A stretch of 64,000 nt of DNA, taken from the sequence record KC690136; one strand, 5' to 3'. Below are positions 2,530-9,222 of the stretch, piece by piece. How positions within the stretch are numbered: the stretch's first letter is position 1; the number at the start of each line of letters is the position of its first letter. The notes beneath the pieces were generated by a model. The model was given only the letters and a program-made list of their open reading frames with translations. It was not told where the DNA came from and made no database searches. A program made the position numbers and the translations under genes. The DNA is from Escherichia phage JES2013.

Positions 2530-2910
2530 TTAATCGTAGTGTGCCAAAATCTCTCCATCGTTGCAAGTTCCCTCTACAAAGTTATGAAGATTCATGCACT
2601 CATCTTGATAGAAGAATTTACCGCTTTTCAGCCGTAAGCCAAACAACTCCGCATCTCCACGATGGCAAGCCTCTACAAGTTCATAGATTTCATACGGCAA
2701 CTCTCCGTCGTCATGGAAGAACCCAGCCTTATCGTTGACATAGATGAAGAAATAATCACTGCTGTCGCAAGCGTCCAATATTTTAAACCAGATTTCATCT
2801 ACATCTTTTTCTCGGATATCGATCACGCAAGTGGAGCTGCATTCGTACTCCTTCTCCGGCTCCTCGGTCAATACCACCAGGTAGTTTCCCCGCTTACCTA
2901 CTTTAGCCAT
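2530..2910 (-). CDS. hypothetical protein
   Basis: 126-aa ORF co-oriented in the leftward early operon; no recognisable motif. Confidence 0.45.
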   Translation of the reverse strand: MAKVGKRGNYLVVLTEEPEKEYECSSTCVIDIREKDVDEIWFKILDACDSSDYFFIYVNDKAGFFHDDGELPYEIYELVEACHRGDAELFGLRLKSGKFFYQDECMNLHNFVEGTCNDGEILAHYD

Positions 2911-2919
2911 ACAACCTCC

Positions 2920-4104
2920 TTAAGCTTTAGCCAAAATGGCGCTAAACTCTTCACCAAACTCTTTTACAATCTTCATCAGGTTTGGGTATGCTTTGATCAG
3001 CTGAGCAACGATCTTGTCACGACCTTTACCGATAAGCAAGGCATTTCCTAAGGCATTAGGTTTCATCATCGCCATAAAGACTGAAAATACAAAATCTCGG
3101 TTCTCGTCCTTGAAGTTTTCCCAAAGGAAATCGAGAAAGTTTGCCACACAGCTAACAAGATCTTCGTCGGAGATACTTGCATTTTCCATCATATTACGAA
3201 TAGCGATGCAACCTTCAGATCCAAGAATCCACAAGATGTCTGGCTGTTTAGGACCTACGTATTCTTTGCAACCTCCTGCCATAATCCGACCGATTTCCGG
3301 TAAGTTGCGTTTCTTGGTGTGGTAAGTCCAGATCTCTACCGCTGCAGTGTGACCAATAGCACCTTGCAGAAGAACACGGGCCATAGCGTCAGAAATAATA
3401 CCGCTGTCAAAATCGTGCAAGATATCAGATGCAGCAACCCAAGATCGCGGTGTGGCAAAAGATGGACAATTAATCTCAGCCATGGCCTCATAATTATCGA
3501 TAGCTGATGGAACTCTTTTCAGATATCCAATTACAGAGGAGTGCACCCCATTAAGGAATGCGTAGTCCTCAATAAACACCTCTGCATTGCTTGTAACCTC
3601 TACAATGATAAAACGGTTAGCCAGAGGGGCTTCGAGCGCCGAAAGAACCGCACCATCTGTAGAACGGTTACCAGCAGCCACAAAAACAGAACCCTTAGGG
3701 AATGCATAGGTACCGCACTTGTGGTCAAGCATAATTTGCATTGCAACCTTTTGCAGGTAGTTATCTGCATGAGTGAGCTCATCCAGAAAGATAATTCCGC
3801 TCCAGTCAGGATCCGCAGGCCAAAATTCTGGAATTGCAAACACTGTACGTGTAGTTCCATCCGCTTCTACAGGGATAGGTAGCCCAGATAAGTCGGCAGG
3901 ATCTTTATCTGACAGTCGCACGTCAACAAGGTTGTCATCTCGCTCACCGAACATATTATCAGCGATCTGCTTCATCACCTGGCTTTTACCCACACCCATT
4001 GGTCCCAAAATTAGGACAGATCGGCTATGACGTTGGGCAAACTGAATAATAGCTGGCAACTCACGGACAGTGATTTGACCACTTTCGAATACGTTTCTTG
4101 ACAT
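2920..4104 (-). CDS. MoxR-like AAA+ ATPase (AAA_5 type)
   Basis: 394 aa. Walker A LILGPMGVGKSQ, Walker B IIFLDELTHA, sensor region VFVAAGN. Single-AAA domain of MoxR/CbbQ/CobS type. Confidence 0.7.
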   Translation of the reverse strand: MSRNVFESGQITVRELPAIIQFAQRHSRSVLILGPMGVGKSQVMKQIADNMFGERDDNLVDVRLSDKDPADLSGLPIPVEADGTTRTVFAIPEFWPADPDWSGIIFLDELTHADNYLQKVAMQIMLDHKCGTYAFPKGSVFVAAGNRSTDGAVLSALEAPLANRFIIVEVTSNAEVFIEDYAFLNGVHSSVIGYLKRVPSAIDNYEAMAEINCPSFATPRSWVAASDILHDFDSGIISDAMARVLLQGAIGHTAAVEIWTYHTKKRNLPEIGRIMAGGCKEYVGPKQPDILWILGSEGCIAIRNMMENASISDEDLVSCVANFLDFLWENFKDENRDFVFSVFMAMMKPNALGNALLIGKGRDKIVAQLIKAYPNLMKIVKEFGEEFSAILAKA

Positions 4105-4373
4105 TAGTAAAAGTCCTCTACTTGTGTGTAAGTGTTTTCAAAGTTTTCCAAAACAGATATCACATCGGATCTGTCAATATCATACGTGACTCTCCAGTTG
4201 TACGCAACCCTTTCTGCTGTTGCCTCTTCTGGCGCTAGTCGTCTGCTGGCATAAAAGAGTGTTGGAGTACACTTTCTTGCTTGCCCTCTAACTTTCCCAT
4301 AATAATATCTGTGAATATCTTTGTCAAAATTTAACTCTTTTTCTGCACGAAGTTCATATTGCTGGTATAACAT
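4104..4373 (-). CDS. hypothetical protein
   Basis: 89-aa ORF, start overlaps the stop of the upstream gene (translational coupling). Confidence 0.4.
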   Translation of the reverse strand: MLYQQYELRAEKELNFDKDIHRYYYGKVRGQARKCTPTLFYASRRLAPEEATAERVAYNWRVTYDIDRSDVISVLENFENTYTQVEDFY

Positions 4374-4417
4374 CTCTACTACTCCTTAAGCAGCATCCTT
4401 GCCGCCATTCCTGCCCA

Positions 4418-4798
4418 CTAAAATGCAGTCCGAATCCAGACAAGGTTCTTATCTGCCCAATCATAGAGGCAAGTCATTGCACTATTGAATTGCTCACACG
4501 GAGGATAATCTTCTTCCATCTGGCGCATAGCAGAGCCTTGTGGGTAAAGCTCCCGTGCTGCAAACCACGCATCGTAGTCATCCACGGTATCGAAGTAGTA
4601 TACAACATCCTCCAACTCAGGATCGAACTTTGAACTATCAGGATCCAGTTGTTCAGGGAACTTGGAGCGTAACTTGCCAGCCACAATACTTGCCAACTCG
4701 CTAACATGCTTATTGTCCCACTCCACTAGCTTCCCGTCTTCAGTGATGCGTCCTAACCACTGATCATGAAGGTCAACTGTTGTCTTCCACTGAGCCAT
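4418..4798 (-). CDS. hypothetical small acidic protein
   Basis: 126 aa, rich in D/E; early operon position. Confidence 0.45.
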   Translation of the reverse strand: MAQWKTTVDLHDQWLGRITEDGKLVEWDNKHVSELASIVAGKLRSKFPEQLDPDSSKFDPELEDVVYYFDTVDDYDAWFAARELYPQGSAMRQMEEDYPPCEQFNSAMTCLYDWADKNLVWIRTAF

Positions 4799-4800
4799 TA

Positions 4801-5058
4801 TCAGTCCACCTCTTCTTCTCGTTGTAGTTCAAGATACCCGTAGGTCTGGACATCTTGAAGGGTGTGGAACTCCCCCTCTGCCGCTAAGGCACGAACAACT
4901 TGGCACAAAACCTTATGAGGAACTTCATCCAAACCTAGATTCAGTGCAGGAAACACCTTATCTAAGTCAACAAAATAAACGAACTGTAGCTCACCAGCTT
5001 CAAAAGGTGTATCTTCAATAAACATCTTCTCGGCATTAGTCAAGATCTGCACTTTCAT
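4801..5058 (-). CDS. hypothetical small acidic protein
   Basis: 85 aa, acidic C-terminus REEEVD. Confidence 0.4.
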   Translation of the reverse strand: MKVQILTNAEKMFIEDTPFEAGELQFVYFVDLDKVFPALNLGLDEVPHKVLCQVVRALAAEGEFHTLQDVQTYGYLELQREEEVD

Positions 5059-5435
5059 TATTCTACCTCCTCTTCTTTTTCTTCGGCATTAGTTTCATGG
5101 CTACCCCACTCGGGAGTTTCCACCTCGATAGTAAACTCACGCACTACACGGTAATTGCCCATGAAGCGCTCTACTTCGTCAAGGCTTATGGAGAGGCCAT
5201 TGGCAACCAGGTCTGCAGCACCCTCTTCTACCAGGTAGTCCAGATTGGCTTCCAGAGCCTCAGGTTCAAACCCTGTCAATGCAATCAGATAACCTTCCCC
5301 TTCATCAGGGAGGACAATACAGCCCAATTGATTTTCTTTAAAAAGGCAGTGACCATCATTATTGATTGGGTGTTCATTGCAGTAAATAGCTGCACGATAA
5401 GTAACTTTAGACATCGGTAAGGTCTCCTTAGGCAA
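5058..5435 (-). CDS. hypothetical small acidic protein
   Basis: 125 aa, acidic tail NAEEKEEEVE; overlaps neighbours by 1-8 nt. Confidence 0.45.
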   Translation of the reverse strand: MPKETLPMSKVTYRAAIYCNEHPINNDGHCLFKENQLGCIVLPDEGEGYLIALTGFEPEALEANLDYLVEEGAADLVANGLSISLDEVERFMGNYRVVREFTIEVETPEWGSHETNAEEKEEEVE

Positions 5436-5706
5436 TTGTCATTTTACATTCTTGAAATTTTAACACAAGACGGTGATTGTGTCTAGTGTCTAAAAAGATT
5501 TTTTCAACCATCAGGTACACGGTATAACCGTCCATCTTGTTGACAACAAAATCTCCAGGGTAAGGGAGAGTGTCCCCTGGGCTGGGAAAACATAACCCGC
5601 TCAGAAAGGCATCGTCAGTGGTGGACTTAATAGATTTCCACACACTGTCTGCCTGAACATGCTCACCGACGTAATATACATTACCACATGCCTTCATCAT
5701 AGTCAA
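5428..5706 (-). CDS. hypothetical protein
   Basis: 92-aa ORF in the same operon. Confidence 0.4.
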   Translation of the reverse strand: MTMMKACGNVYYVGEHVQADSVWKSIKSTTDDAFLSGLCFPSPGDTLPYPGDFVVNKMDGYTVYLMVEKIFLDTRHNHRLVLKFQECKMTIA

Positions 5707-6602
5707 ATCCCCGCATAAATTAAACTTGTATCAGTATACTTCTTTAACGGGTAAATATCCTGTCCGTAAATGTAGTCATTAAACACCTCATCTACCCAAA
5801 GACTGCATTTATACCCCATCATTTCTAAAACGCCCATCTCTTCATCAGTGAATTTATCACCACTCTTGCAGGATGTCAATACCTCATTTTGTACTCTTGC
5901 CAGTTCAAAAATGTTGTTAGCAATGTCACTATTAACGATCAGGTATTCACCCAAAGGGTGTGCGGCATTAAAGATGCACAGTGGGAGGTTGACGTAATAG
6001 TCCCCAGGTGTATAGAAATTGTTGAGGTCCTTCACCAGAACATTCTTATCAGTCACTTCATTTATAACATCGTGCATATCGCACATCTTTATATGCTTGA
6101 GGATTCCATCTCCCATCACAAAATAAAAACTTGCTGAGATACTCTCGGCATAGATCTTACTGGACCCGTTGTAGTTGTATTTTACGCGAATACTCACGGG
6201 AGTTTTTCCTGTCGCGTTAGCCATCATCCAAAGGAACGGAAGTTCAAACTTCTCTTCTGAGGAAACAAAAGGTGAAGTTGCCAGAGATCGGAAACCTCCA
6301 GAAAAGTTGAAAGTCACAGAACCGCTCCGGCGGTATGATACCGCGTATTCTACTTTTATATCGACATACCCGTTGGAATAGGTGTGTCCTTCATTATCTA
6401 AATATGTCCACTTATCAGACCCAGATACCAATCTACGCTCAATAACCTTCATCACTATAGGAATTAGTGGGTTGGTACAAACCGCTTTTGAAGTAGCTTT
6501 AGCATCTAAAGCCTCGTAAATTGCAGAAAGGATGTCTCCAGCTGAGAGATTGGTTGTTATATCCTGTTGCCACCGAGTACTAAAACTGTTAAGATTTGCC
6601 AT
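5703..6602 (-). CDS. hypothetical protein, first gene of leftward early operon
   Basis: 299 aa. AGGAG lies 9 nt upstream of the ATG, and a strong promoter lies immediately upstream. Confidence 0.55.
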   Translation of the reverse strand: MANLNSFSTRWQQDITTNLSAGDILSAIYEALDAKATSKAVCTNPLIPIVMKVIERRLVSGSDKWTYLDNEGHTYSNGYVDIKVEYAVSYRRSGSVTFNFSGGFRSLATSPFVSSEEKFELPFLWMMANATGKTPVSIRVKYNYNGSSKIYAESISASFYFVMGDGILKHIKMCDMHDVINEVTDKNVLVKDLNNFYTPGDYYVNLPLCIFNAAHPLGEYLIVNSDIANNIFELARVQNEVLTSCKSGDKFTDEEMGVLEMMGYKCSLWVDEVFNDYIYGQDIYPLKKYTDTSLIYAGI

Positions 6603-6642
6603 GAGTGAGTGCTCCTATGTTGGTTTTCTTTTGAATGGGTGC

Positions 6643-6671
6643 ACTATATCGGAGATTTAGAGTAAAGTCAA
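6643..6671 (-). promoter_or_regulatory. sigma70-like early promoter (TTGACT - 17 nt - TATAGT)
   Basis: Read on the minus strand: TTGACTttactctaaatctccgaTATAGT, followed by AGGAG and the ATG at 6602. Confidence 0.6.
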
Positions 6672-6684
6672 CACGTTTTTGATG

Positions 6685-6713
6685 TTGACATCTGTTGAGA
6701 CAATTGATACGAT
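6685..6713 (+). promoter_or_regulatory. sigma70-like early promoter (TTGACA - 17 nt - TACGAT), divergent partner
   Basis: TTGACAtctgttgagacaattgaTACGAT. It lies inside the first 35 nt of tracked ORF 6679.., so the real start is probably downstream. Confidence 0.5.
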
Positions 6714-6744: not shown

Positions 6745-7722
6745 ATGAATCTTGAAAAATATTATACACCAGAAGAGTTAGAGCGCTTGCTCAAAAAATA
6801 TAGACGCAAACAGAATAACGCACGGAAACGAGATATAGAGTTCGACCTGTCGTGGGAAGAATACCTCCTATTTGGTAAAAAACTTTTAGGGGAGGGGGTA
6901 TGCGACTACACCCTTATACCTTTCGACATGCACACAGATGAGAACGGACTGGGAAATCCTTTCTACCCATCTTTGGAGCGTATAGATGATGAAGGTCCTT
7001 ACGCAATTGACAATTGTTGTGTGGTAGGGTTGAGGTGCAATGCTCTGAAAGACTGTCTGGTAGATAAAAAGACTGCAATCCTGATTAAAGACAAAACTGA
7101 TCGAAAAATTGTCCAGCAGATGATGCTCCACCTGAGCGAAGAGCGTATGGAGAAATTGAAAGGTGATTATACTTTTGAAGATTTCATCTTGCAATACGGG
7201 ACAGAAGAAGATAAACTAGCACTATTTGACGAAGAGGAAGAAGATATGTCACCGATGCAGGATTTTAAAAATTTCATGGCTGATCGTGCAGCCAACAAAC
7301 ACATTTCAGACATCGTAAACGAGACTGTGACAGAAGAAATTGAAGAACAGACCTCTGAAGAAGAAAAAGAGCCTCAGGAGGTTGAAGAGGAGATTGCAGA
7401 AGAGGTTCCTGCACTGCCTGATGATGTTGAGATTGCTAAGGCTTACACTTTCTATTGTCAAACGTTCTACGATGCAGGTATGAAAGTTGATCTGTCGTTC
7501 AGCCAATTTAAGAGTTCGTATATTCGCAAATGCTGTGCTTTAACTGGTGAACGTCTCGGAGCTGGACTTAAACCACTGTTGGTGACCGACTGGAATAAAG
7601 GTTTCACTAAAGGAAACTTTATGGTAGTATCTCCAATTATGGAGAAAGCTATGACAGATCTTATGAAGACCACCCGCATGACAATGACCGAGTTGGCAGG
7701 TATTTTCAAACACGTTAAATAA
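6745..7722 (+). CDS. hypothetical protein with two degenerate HNH/EndoVII-like segments and an acidic linker
   Basis: Tracked ORF is 6679..7722; start trimmed to Met-23 (MNLEK) because the promoter overlaps the tracked start. Segment LERIDDEGPYAIDNCCVVGLRCNALK resembles an HNH motif with the histidines replaced. Confidence 0.45.
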   Translation: MNLEKYYTPEELERLLKKYRRKQNNARKRDIEFDLSWEEYLLFGKKLLGEGVCDYTLIPFDMHTDENGLGNPFYPSLERIDDEGPYAIDNCCVVGLRCNALKDCLVDKKTAILIKDKTDRKIVQQMMLHLSEERMEKLKGDYTFEDFILQYGTEEDKLALFDEEEEDMSPMQDFKNFMADRAANKHISDIVNETVTEEIEEQTSEEEKEPQEVEEEIAEEVPALPDDVEIAKAYTFYCQTFYDAGMKVDLSFSQFKSSYIRKCCALTGERLGAGLKPLLVTDWNKGFTKGNFMVVSPIMEKAMTDLMKTTRMTMTELAGIFKHVK

Positions 7723-7727
7723 TGACA

Positions 7728-7755
7728 GGGGCCAATGGCCCCTTCTGGAGTTTTA
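7728..7755 (+). terminator. hairpin GGGGCC-AAT-GGCCCC plus U-rich tail (terminator or attenuator)
   Basis: Perfect 6-bp GC stem right after the stop at 7722; the tracked ATG at 7735 sits in the loop. Confidence 0.4.
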
Positions 7756-9216
7756 ATGGATAGCAGAAGTTCAGAAATCATTGCCTCACAGAAAGATGAT
7801 GCCCTGAGAATGTTGCAGGCTGCACGTATGTATCTCCTTGAAAAGCTGCCGTTTTATGGCACACTACTGTCAGGGTTGCAGTTCGTAGAAAACCACACAT
7901 GGTGCTCCACCATGGCAACCGACCATAAACGCATCTATTACAGTCCTGAGTTCATTATGGGATTGGCTGATGAACGCAAGGCTATTCTTAAGGCTTCTCT
8001 AACTGACGAGCAGTTTGAGATGGCTGAAGTTTTCTATTCCCCAAAATCTGTGAAAGAGGTGGCCTTCCTTCTGTCACATGAGGTGGGACATATTATCTGT
8101 GATCACCTGGTCCGTGGTAAAAGCTTTGAGCCGGAACTGTTCAATATTGCTTGTGATCACGTTATCAACACAGGTCTTGTGGTTGACTTTAGCAAGCCCC
8201 CTTGTGTTTTCTTCCCGAAGGGGAAAAGCACTACGTTCGTGAAAGGTAAGCCTTTTGGATTCTTAGCCAGCTGCTACTGCGACATGAAGTTTCATGGATG
8301 GATTGCTGAGAACGTCTATGCAGTTCTTGATAAGCAAAGAGATCAGAATAACGGTAAAAGTAAGAGCGGTAAAGGTGAGAACTCTCAAGGAGATAAGCGA
8401 CAAACCGATGATCACATGAGTGGTAACGGTGGCACCAGTGATGATCTTGGAAAGGCTATGGGGTATGATCAGCCACAACCTGTAATCAGTCAATCTGATA
8501 AAGATCAGGCCATGCAGGACTCTGGCGATATGCTGGAGGCAGCAATGCAAGCTTCCGGAGGCCGTTGCCCTGAGGCGGTTCGTGAGTTTGTCAAGAATAG
8601 AGGTAAGCCTGTAATCAATTATATAGACATCATCAAGCAACGCATGTTGTCTAAACGAAAGGCTGAACTGACCTACAGAAAACCTGGTCGCCGATCTGGG
8701 TCTTTGACCAGCACAATGCGAAAAGTTGGGGCTATAAACAAGAACCAGCACGTTATTGTTCCTGGTCGTAATCCGGAAAACACCATAGATATTGTGGTAG
8801 CTTTAGACGTTTCTGGCTCGATCTCTCAAAGAACTTTAAAGAAAATGTTCAATGAAATCACCGGATTGTGCAATCTGTATAAAGAGTTTAAGGTTACAAT
8901 GTTCTGTTGGTCAACCGAGATTGGAGAGGTCAAAGTATACACTCGCGGCAACATAGACGAGATGATCAACTATGAGGTCCACTCAACATGGGGCACAACA
9001 GCTGCTTGCGTGTTCGAGTATCTGGATGCCAACATACCAAATGCAAAAGATGTCATCGTCCTGACCGACCTATACTTTGAGCATAACTTTGAACAAAAGG
9101 CTGTTGACAACAAGTGGAAAAAGTACGATACTTTATGGGTTCTCACCGAAGGGTATAATAAAAATTATATCCCGAGCTTTGGGAAAACTGTGGAATTAAT
9201 CGAGTACGCCAAGTAA
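7756..9216 (+). CDS. two-domain protein: N-terminal putative zinc metallopeptidase (HExxH) plus C-terminal vWA domain
   Basis: Tracked ORF is 7735..9216; start trimmed to the in-frame ATG at 7756, which has GGAG upstream. Motifs LSHEVGHIICDH and ACDHVIN, then vWA MIDAS-like VVALDVSGSIS. Confidence 0.7.
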   Translation: MDSRSSEIIASQKDDALRMLQAARMYLLEKLPFYGTLLSGLQFVENHTWCSTMATDHKRIYYSPEFIMGLADERKAILKASLTDEQFEMAEVFYSPKSVKEVAFLLSHEVGHIICDHLVRGKSFEPELFNIACDHVINTGLVVDFSKPPCVFFPKGKSTTFVKGKPFGFLASCYCDMKFHGWIAENVYAVLDKQRDQNNGKSKSGKGENSQGDKRQTDDHMSGNGGTSDDLGKAMGYDQPQPVISQSDKDQAMQDSGDMLEAAMQASGGRCPEAVREFVKNRGKPVINYIDIIKQRMLSKRKAELTYRKPGRRSGSLTSTMRKVGAINKNQHVIVPGRNPENTIDIVVALDVSGSISQRTLKKMFNEITGLCNLYKEFKVTMFCWSTEIGEVKVYTRGNIDEMINYEVHSTWGTTAACVFEYLDANIPNAKDVIVLTDLYFEHNFEQKAVDNKWKKYDTLWVLTEGYNKNYIPSFGKTVELIEYAK

Positions 9217-9222
9217 GAGAGG

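Follow-up and report, generated by a model that had tools for sequence, protein, structure and literature searches.

A block of six small orphan genes beside the MoxR-type ATPase gene of an rV5-like Escherichia phage

Escherichia phage JES2013 (sequence record KC690136) carries, within the 64,000-nucleotide stretch analysed here (referred to as the window), a block of six small open reading frames (ORFs), gp10 to gp5, upstream of a gene encoding a MoxR-type AAA+ ATPase. The closest described genes are those deposited as gp005 to gp010 of phage rV5 and as bas54_0062 to bas54_0057 of phage Bas54 (MaxBurger), which are the same genes (99.2% nucleotide identity to rV5, and 96–100% identity to the Bas54 proteins). 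The block is structurally identical to its counterparts in these records, and their public names are either wrong, as is ‘ATPase’ for gp5, or unsupported, as is ‘fucosyltransferase’ for gp10.

Three kinds of better-described systems resemble this locus. Like the early or pre-early cassettes of T4 and T5 and other phage accessory regions, the block consists of small, overlapping, dispensable and fast-evolving genes behind host-type promoters, and, as in coliphage accessory cassettes, it is flanked by conserved genes, its gene content varies, and takeover and counter-defence genes lie beside it. It differs from the T4 and T5 cassettes in that two of its genes, gp6 and gp5, are unusually conserved across the subfamily and fixed beside MoxR, and no target is assigned to its products here. 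A second parallel is found in the bacterial MoxR-VWA ternary conflict systems and in RavA-ViaA, with which the locus shares a MoxR ATPase and a VWA metallopeptidase encoded together, and small conserved genes directly upstream of MoxR. Unlike in these systems, the small genes of the block show no similarity to MoxR-VWA third components, and in the single genetic test MoxR functions without them. The third parallel concerns T7 Ocr (gp0.3) and ArdA. One block protein, gp8, is likewise small and comparably negative and is encoded in a promoter-proximal, probably early operon, and the phage group that carries it is insensitive to type I restriction.

In the present study we describe the organization, conservation and predicted products of the gp10–gp5 block, and weigh the possible roles of these products against published transposon-insertion and restriction data. 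The reading that we favour, to which we give about even chances, is that the block forms a cassette of early accessory genes within a locus for takeover and counter-defence, and that its products bind host proteins and matter in some hosts only. Host RNA polymerase would transcribe the eight genes from gp10 to gp3 as one operon, starting at a conserved sigma-70-type promoter and stopping at an intrinsic terminator. The six block products would be accessory proteins without enzymatic activity, each of them dispensable for lytic growth. They would most likely bind host proteins, whether these serve in defence or in housekeeping, and would be useful only in particular hosts. They would act independently of the MoxR/VWA counter-defence pair encoded next to them.

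Organization, conservation and dispensability of the block

A 3.8-kb query over the block (2900–6700) matched 119 phage records, the top matches being E. coli O157 typing phage 14 (99.5%) and phage rV5 (NC_011041, 99.2%). Because these matches lie at the same coordinates as in the window, we take the window to come from an rV5-like Vequintavirus, of whose genome it forms the left end. In rV5 the six ORFs are gp010 to gp005, and in the window all of them are present on the minus strand exactly where the original prediction, made from the sequence alone, had placed six packed ORFs upstream of the MoxR gene (Table 1).

A sigma-70-type promoter precedes gp10 at a distance of ∼40 nt, and its -35 element (TTGAC) is invariant in five relatives, two of which are distant metagenomic contigs. 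This promoter is one of a divergent pair, the partner of which faces gp11, and the rV5 paper of 2013 already describes the divergent promoter region. An imperfect palindrome contains, in its two arms, the -35 hexamers of the pair, and the palindrome and the divergent -35 arrangement are also present on contigs L007 and L011. The block had been predicted to follow a strong early promoter; the promoter itself is well matched, and the words ‘strong’ and ‘early’ derive from its similarity to sigma-70 promoters. No transcriptome for this phage group was found in the literature.

Each of the six genes is preceded by a Shine-Dalgarno sequence. The junction spacings from gp10 to MoxR are, in order, 2, 13, -1, 2, 44 and -1 nt, and the stop codon of gp5 overlaps the start codon of MoxR (TAATG). 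Translational coupling, which had been proposed for the entire block, appears plausible at the gp10–gp9, gp8–gp7, gp7–gp6 and gp5–MoxR junctions, but not between gp6 and gp5 because of the 44-nt gap. A strong intrinsic terminator follows gp3, and an equivalent terminator is found after gp3 on L007. The promoter, the spacings and the terminator together delimit a unit of eight genes, gp10-gp9-gp8-gp7-gp6-gp5-MoxR-gp3. Scanning of the region against Rfam gave no match.

None of the six proteins has a Pfam match above threshold, an NCBIfam match or a match to a PHROG with a credible function, which bears out the earlier statement that recognisable enzymatic motifs are lacking. The PHROGs that they match are family-specific; five are of unknown function, and the one matched by gp5 is labelled only ‘ATPase’. 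The same label is used for gp5 in RefSeq, and was rejected: gp5 is an 89-aa protein, and because it matches no P-loop family the label is best explained as a carry-over from the annotation of its neighbour. Searches of the block proteins against PDB sequences returned nothing credible. The only Pfam match of gp9 is DUF3081 (E-value 0.023; 14.9 bits compared to a cut-off of 25 bits), in which no stretch passes alone, and gp9 has no PDB relative. Structure prediction followed by structural comparison, which had been suggested as a check, was run for gp6 and gp10, and neither model gave an informative fold match. The Trp-rich gp6 yields a confident model (predicted local distance difference test score, pLDDT, 93.6) that corresponds to a generic helical bundle, while gp10 is composed of a clade-specific alpha+beta N-terminal part and a C-terminal module of ∼42 aa.

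GenBank and RefSeq label gp10 as an alpha-1,3-fucosyltransferase, which would imply that it modifies a host or phage glycan. A single-sequence phmmer search did match gp10 to human FUT9 (8d0o; E-value 1e-3, 22 bits, residues 65–236), in agreement with the original annotation note. However, no Pfam glycosyltransferase family was matched at E≤0.1, and the FUT9 match vanished (none at E≤5) when a five-sequence profile of the gp10 family was used. Moreover, this family amounts to only two clusters in 1.84 billion proteins, and the two Rossmann-like domains of a GT-B fold were not found. With no match to a GT10 profile, the FUT9 match lost and the GT-B fold absent, the fucosyltransferase reading is effectively refuted, and we give it next to no credence. 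In sister genera the first gene of the operon is named ‘thymidylate kinase’, also without Pfam support.

The ratio of non-synonymous to synonymous substitution rates (dN/dS) is 0.02–0.20 for all six genes when compared to three other Vequintavirus genomes, and each gene is kept with an intact frame in more than 110 Vequintavirus genomes. The metagenomic contig L007 also has orthologues with intact frames, at 47–58% identity, and contig L011 has one of gp10 at 28%. It could be argued that certain ORFs are over-called frames or remnants without function, since all six are dispensable in Bas54 and no relative is known outside the lineage. The low dN/dS of each gene, the intact frames in relatives at 28–58% identity, the Shine-Dalgarno sequence at each ORF and the very confident predicted fold of gp6 all speak for real genes, and the selection analysis refutes the argument, which we consider highly improbable. 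The genes nevertheless evolve fast. In the comparison with L007, non-synonymous divergence (dN) is 0.085 for MoxR, 0.149 for the VWA protein and 0.286 for the Srd-like protein, compared to 0.354 for gp6, 0.380 for gp5, 0.389 for gp7, 0.409 for gp8 and 0.469 for gp10. The block proteins (dN 0.35–0.47) thus diverge 4–6 times faster than MoxR.

The distribution of the six genes is uneven. gp10 was found only in Vequintavirus (116 records, every one with at least 86% identity), and its last ∼42 residues match the C-terminus of the product of the operon-first gene in Seuna-, Mydo- and Avunavirus (hhalign 93%, E-value 3e-7). gp6 is present in 178 records across Vequintavirinae. In each of the relatives compared (Seuna-, Mydo- and Avunavirus, and metagenomic contigs L007, L016 and L017) it precedes MoxR, either directly or with one small gp5-like gene in between. 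gp5 is missing in some relatives, and is probably homologous to an 80-aa gene that occupies its place in Seuna- and Avunavirus, as suggested by its match to the GAP31_025 family (hhalign probability 72%, E-value 3.3e-5, 64 columns). No relatives of gp7, gp8 and gp9 were found outside the rV5-like clade, and no homology was found between these three and the sister-genus genes in the same slot, which in Seuna-, Mydo- and Avunavirus are an HD phosphohydrolase and other genes of unknown function. gp9 is absent from L007, where an additional acidic ORF of 101 aa is found instead, and gp8 was recovered from a single IMG/VR locus. Judged by these comparisons, the block is a subfamily-wide frame, made up of the gp10 C-terminal module, gp6 and usually gp5, around a replaceable genus-specific cassette, gp9-gp8-gp7.

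Paralogy among the small proteins, or between gp8 and the 101-aa ORF of L007, was not significant (hhalign E-value 0.015, probability 3%). A weak gp6-like match, P0054 (E-value 3e-3), in an unrelated phage contig was considered too weak and was not used. Just upstream of P0054, this metagenomic phage contig encodes a Ro60/TROVE + vWA protein (L014, 3879–5522).

The six genes of Bas54, bas54_0057 to bas54_0062, have been assayed in a HIDEN-SEQ study, in which transposon insertions were mapped across the Bas54 genome (10.1101/2025.11.20.689424). The MoxR protein of Bas54 is 100% identical to gp4 of the window. On K-12 all six genes were non-essential, with 89–100% of their TA sites hit, and the MoxR, VWA and Srd-like genes were likewise non-essential (10.1101/2025.11.20.689424). 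On the uropathogenic isolate CFE311, insertions in MoxR were strongly depleted (log2 fold change -7.23, q=0) and those in the VWA-metallopeptidase gene to a lesser degree (-2.20, q 0.009), and a MoxR knockout was sensitive to the two-gene defence system DS-28. The six ORFs were not depleted on this isolate (log2 fold change +0.24 to +0.79, q 0.89–1.0). The library itself had been made in K-12 deleted for its restriction systems (10.1101/2025.11.20.689424). In Extended Data Table 8 of the preprint (S6, S7), the sheet ‘K-12 vs CFE303’ contains the command line of sample 311 and the CFE311 numbers, and because of this repetition only one selective condition, CFE311, is readable. An anti-type I role could not have shown in this assay, because the library strain is restriction-deleted and the BW25113 control is restriction-deficient (hsdR514). 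None of the retron, CBASS, Avs2 and evolution papers using Bas48, Bas51 or Bas54 implicates the six genes.

The six genes had been put forward as candidate anti-defence or host-takeover factors. This proposal holds in so far as they are dispensable and fast-evolving, the middle genes turn over, and the neighbours include an Srd-like takeover gene and the counter-defence genes MoxR and VWA; the DNA-mimic argument on which it partly drew is not supported, as described below. Several points weigh against an independently acting, host-directed accessory cassette. No defence system, host target or toxicity is linked to any of the six genes, and their non-depletion comes from a single selective condition. 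Early expression of the block is a prediction from the type of its promoter. gp6 always adjoins MoxR, which could signal a functional link rather than independence, and the fold comparison covered gp6 and gp10, so that a known fold in gp8, gp7, gp9 or gp5 could have escaped. We infer an early timing and a protein-binding mode of action for the accessory cassette, and regard an anti-defence role of its genes as plausible but unproven.

Acidic proteins and type I restriction

The original prediction described several of the proteins as strongly acidic, and took their acidic C-termini as a sign of DNA mimicry or anti-restriction activity. Acidity is confirmed for half of the block: gp8 (net charge -20, isoelectric point (pI) 4.2), gp7 (-11, pI 4.3) and gp6 (-13, pI 4.3) rank 1, 2 and 7 in net charge per residue among the 67 ORFs of the window, whereas gp10, gp9 (pI 6.2) and gp5 are not unusually acidic. 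The proteome is acidic as a whole, with a median pI of 5.1.

The C-terminal tails have a different explanation. AEEKEEEVE of gp8 and REEEVD of gp7 are encoded by GAAGAGGAGGTAGAATAATG and GAAGAAGAGGTGGACTGATAATG, respectively, and their last codons (GAA GAG GAG GTA GAA TAA-TG and GAA GAA GAG GTG GAC TGA TA ATG) contain Shine-Dalgarno sequences in frame. GAGGAGG at the end of gp8 serves gp7 as its ribosome-binding site, and GAGGTGG at the end of gp7 does the same for gp6. Neither tail is conserved in the 53–58% identical L007 orthologues, where EEEVD of gp7 is replaced by LKTVLEGL. A shared ‘EEVD’-type C-terminal motif of gp7 and gp8 was rejected on these two grounds. The proteins stay negative without the tails, with -15 for gp8 and -7 for gp7 after removal of the last ten residues. 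The L007 orthologue of gp8, 53% identical, again has a net charge of -20, and acidic positions are kept slightly above average (62–73% compared to 48–58% identity; 62% in gp8). The acidic bodies of these proteins look selected, and the tails do not.

The charge of gp8 raises the question whether this protein, perhaps together with gp7 or gp6, inhibits type I restriction-modification or BREX-like systems by mimicking DNA, in analogy to Ocr but with an unrelated fold. With 118 aa and a net charge of -20, retained in the L007 orthologue, gp8 is the most acidic ORF of the window and resembles Ocr in charge. In sequence it nevertheless resembles neither Ocr nor ArdA nor any solved protein. None of the six proteins matched the Ocr family in Pfam at E≤0.1, Ocr chains were absent from PDB searches with gp8 alone and with a gp8 family profile (E≤5–10), and no Pfam, NCBIfam or PDB match to ArdA or other anti-restriction families was obtained. 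The gp8 profile did match PDB entry 8vd6, ‘CAP REPEAT’ (E-value 1e-4), which was treated as compositional because no stretch passes by itself. Unlike Ocr and ArdA, gp8 is encoded third or fourth in its operon and is not the first gene expressed, and the sequence behind its acidic tail serves as ribosome-binding site for gp7. Its sequence pattern suggests, as a visual impression rather than a computed prediction, a mixed alpha/beta fold, unlike that of the elongated, all-helical Ocr, which presents carboxylates in the manner of the phosphates of bent B-DNA. In addition, gp8 is absent from sister genera, and its acidity is to be seen against that of the entire proteome.

The restriction phenotype of these phages bears on the same question. 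The BASEL paper calls Vequintavirinae, and phi92-like phages with them, exceptionally susceptible to restriction (PMC8594841). Its raw data give, for type II systems, an efficiency of plating (EOP) of ∼1e-3 or lower on EcoRI and no plating on EcoRV, and for type III systems values that vary from an EOP of 0.4 to no plating (PMC8594841). As applied to type I systems, the statement that these phages lack protection is contradicted by the raw EOPs. Phages Bas48–59, which carry the block, plate on EcoKI with an EOP of 0.22–0.90 despite 11–17 EcoKI sites in the six of them that were counted, compared to an EOP of 3e-5 for lambda-vir with 5 sites and 3e-3 for P1vir with 11 sites, where all site counts are our reading of unlabelled supplementary columns (PMC8594841, file 7). 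On EcoCFT_I, the EOP of Bas48–59 is 0.5–2.0, a range that holds for Bas48–62 as well (PMC8594841). The adenine methylation mapped in Bas51 is found mostly at GATC and requires a single phage methylase (PMC12548924), and should therefore leave the EcoKI sites unmasked. The high EOP on type I systems and the methylation pattern together make a protein inhibitor of type I systems plausible somewhere in the genome.

Type I insensitivity does not map to the block, however, because phages with no match to it share the phenotype. The phi92-like Bas60–62, which gave no match to the block and did not turn up in tblastn searches with gp10 or gp6, are equally insensitive (EOP on EcoKI 0.14–0.42), as is the unrelated N4 (EOP 0.84, with 7 EcoKI sites by the same reading of the columns; PMC8594841). 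This separates gp8 from T7 Ocr, and ∼100 other small genes of unknown function in the genome are equally good candidates. We treat the insensitivity as a lead and do not count it as support for gp8, and consider an Ocr-like role of gp8 unlikely. For the block as a whole, the argument from DNA mimicry is not supported: no protein has sequence similarity, nor the modelled gp6 and gp10 fold similarity, to solved DNA mimics or anti-restriction proteins, the tails are ribosome-binding sites, the block is not uniformly acidic, and the six genes are not depleted on CFE311.

A gene of a known restriction-alleviation type does occur at this locus in Avunavirus. It is a Lar-like gene of 66 aa (L010 4141–4344, Av-05; phrog_599, E-value 4e-11), situated between the Srd-like and VWA genes on the opposite arm, and it is absent from the window. 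In KPP-1, a 66-aa gene is found in the same position (L005 3315–3515).

The MoxR/VWA pair and the surrounding genes

MoxR ATPases act together with VWA partners, and frequently with a third component as well. gp6, and gp5 where it is present, could be such components, each in the role of adaptor, regulator or client of the phage MoxR AAA+/VWA-metallopeptidase machine, and could direct it to particular host targets; the acidic proteins could then serve as ligands of the VWA metal site. The presence of gp6 homologues upstream of MoxR in every relative examined is consistent with this, as are the overlap of the gp5 stop with the MoxR start, the probable conservation of gp5 at that position, and the requirement for both MoxR and VWA on CFE311. 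Against it, insertions in the gp5 and gp6 orthologues were not depleted on CFE311 (log2 fold change +0.24 and +0.43, q ∼1, compared to -7.23 for MoxR), and in this one condition the genes share no phenotype with MoxR (10.1101/2025.11.20.689424). MoxR-like ATPases related to gp4 are found in 746 phage records, including jumbo and N4-like phages (N4 gp24-like), whereas relatives of gp6 are found in 178, all from one collinear lineage, so that the adjacency of gp6 and MoxR may be inherited rather than functional. Moreover, gp5 is dispensed with in some relatives. We consider a role of gp6 and gp5 in the MoxR/VWA machine possible but doubtful.

The 746 records also imply that a counter-defence role of the kind seen for the MoxR of Bas54 may be widespread. 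The best sigma-70 match of the region (11/12) is situated within gp5, just upstream of MoxR. It could supply a separate MoxR transcript, which would explain why insertions upstream are non-polar; the match is not conserved in L007.

Two bolder proposals can be formulated from the acidity of gp8 and the position of gp6 and gp5. Either gp8 is a new-fold inhibitor of type I or BREX-like systems that accounts for the type I insensitivity of Vequintavirus, or gp6 and gp5 act as interchangeable adaptors, directing MoxR/VWA to different host defence proteins, in which case the evasion of DS-28 would be one adaptor-independent case. That one or the other is correct seems to us rather unlikely, and the accessory cassette of host-directed proteins remains the reading that we prefer.

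The genes and signals around the block are listed in Table 1. The ORF of gp11, as called mechanically, opens at a TTG codon at 6679, but the plus-strand promoter (6685–6713) falls within that extension. rIIA lies close downstream of the locus. In the window gp12 is one intact ORF of 493 aa, while the rV5 record splits it into gp012 (7756–9081) and gp013 (8972–9217), and beyond this split the rV5 coordinates differ by one base. A one-base error or a frameshift in the deposited rV5 sequence is probable at this point. RefSeq NC_011041 names gp11 and gp12 ‘HNH endonuclease’, a label also carried by PHROGs 3118 and 1314, and gp17 is publicly named ‘tail protein’. We judge public product names to be unreliable across this region.

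Table 1. Features of the gp10–gp3 operon and its surroundings in the window.
Feature	Position	Strand	Description
gp12	7735-9216	+	DUF2201 metallopeptidase with VWA-like domain; Pfam DUF2201_N E 3.5e-28, DUF2201 E 4e-11
gp11	6787-7722	+	Srd-like; phrog_4592, phrog_1400; PMC3606486; divergent to the block
Palindrome	6667-6689		Imperfect, GTCAAC-N-GTTGAC
gp10 promoter	6671-6643	-	Sigma-70-type, TTGACT-17-TATAGT; consensus scan 10/12
gp10	5703-6602	-	299 aa; first gene of the operon
gp9	5428-5700	-	90 aa from ATG; 92 aa from upstream TTG
gp8	5058-5414	-	118 aa from ATG; 125 aa from TTG
gp7	4801-5058	-	85 aa
gp6	4418-4798	-	126 aa
gp5	4104-4373	-	89 aa
Sigma-70 match within gp5	4299-4327	-	TTGACA-17-TATTAT
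gp4	2920-4104	-	MoxR-type AAA+ ATPase, 394 aa; same operon, directly after gp5
gp3	2530-2910	-	126 aa, net charge -16; fast-evolving; final gene of the operon
Intrinsic terminator	2516-2501	-	CCCCGCTTCGGCGGGG followed by T-run; closes the gp10-gp3 unit

The HD-domain phosphohydrolase that occupies the slot of the block in sister genera is a 170-aa protein (phrog_990), encoded at L003 5561–6079 and with equivalents on L004–L006, L010 and L016. It has a weak match to Pfam HD_4, below threshold (E-value 7e-4). The HD_4 family includes RelA/SpoT-type alarmone hydrolases, and the protein may be a candidate alarmone hydrolase. Outside the window, Bas54 (MZ501093) has a non-coding gap of ∼2.5 kb (92785–95298) between two long arrays of tiny divergent ORFs, which according to the HIDEN-SEQ authors tolerates no transposon insertions. 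The gap may be an origin or an RNA locus.

Implications for rV5-like phages

Earlier publications already record the ORFs and the promoter pair and, as of 2025, show that the genes are dispensable; dispensable orphan early genes beside counter-defence genes will not surprise a specialist. The present value of the analysis is corrective, in that two public names prove wrong or lack support, ribosome-binding sites account for the acidic tails, and the genes are dispensable in the tested conditions.

rV5-like phages are among the commonest phage isolates of E. coli, and are used in biocontrol and in therapy cocktails, and more than half of their genes have no assigned function. The locus described here already holds one experimentally shown counter-defence function, that of MoxR against DS-28, with the VWA-metallopeptidase gene co-depleted. 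There is a small chance that the block next to it contains a new family of inhibitors. If it is true that any of the six proteins inhibits a defence system, it would represent a new protein family and would help to predict the host range of these phages.

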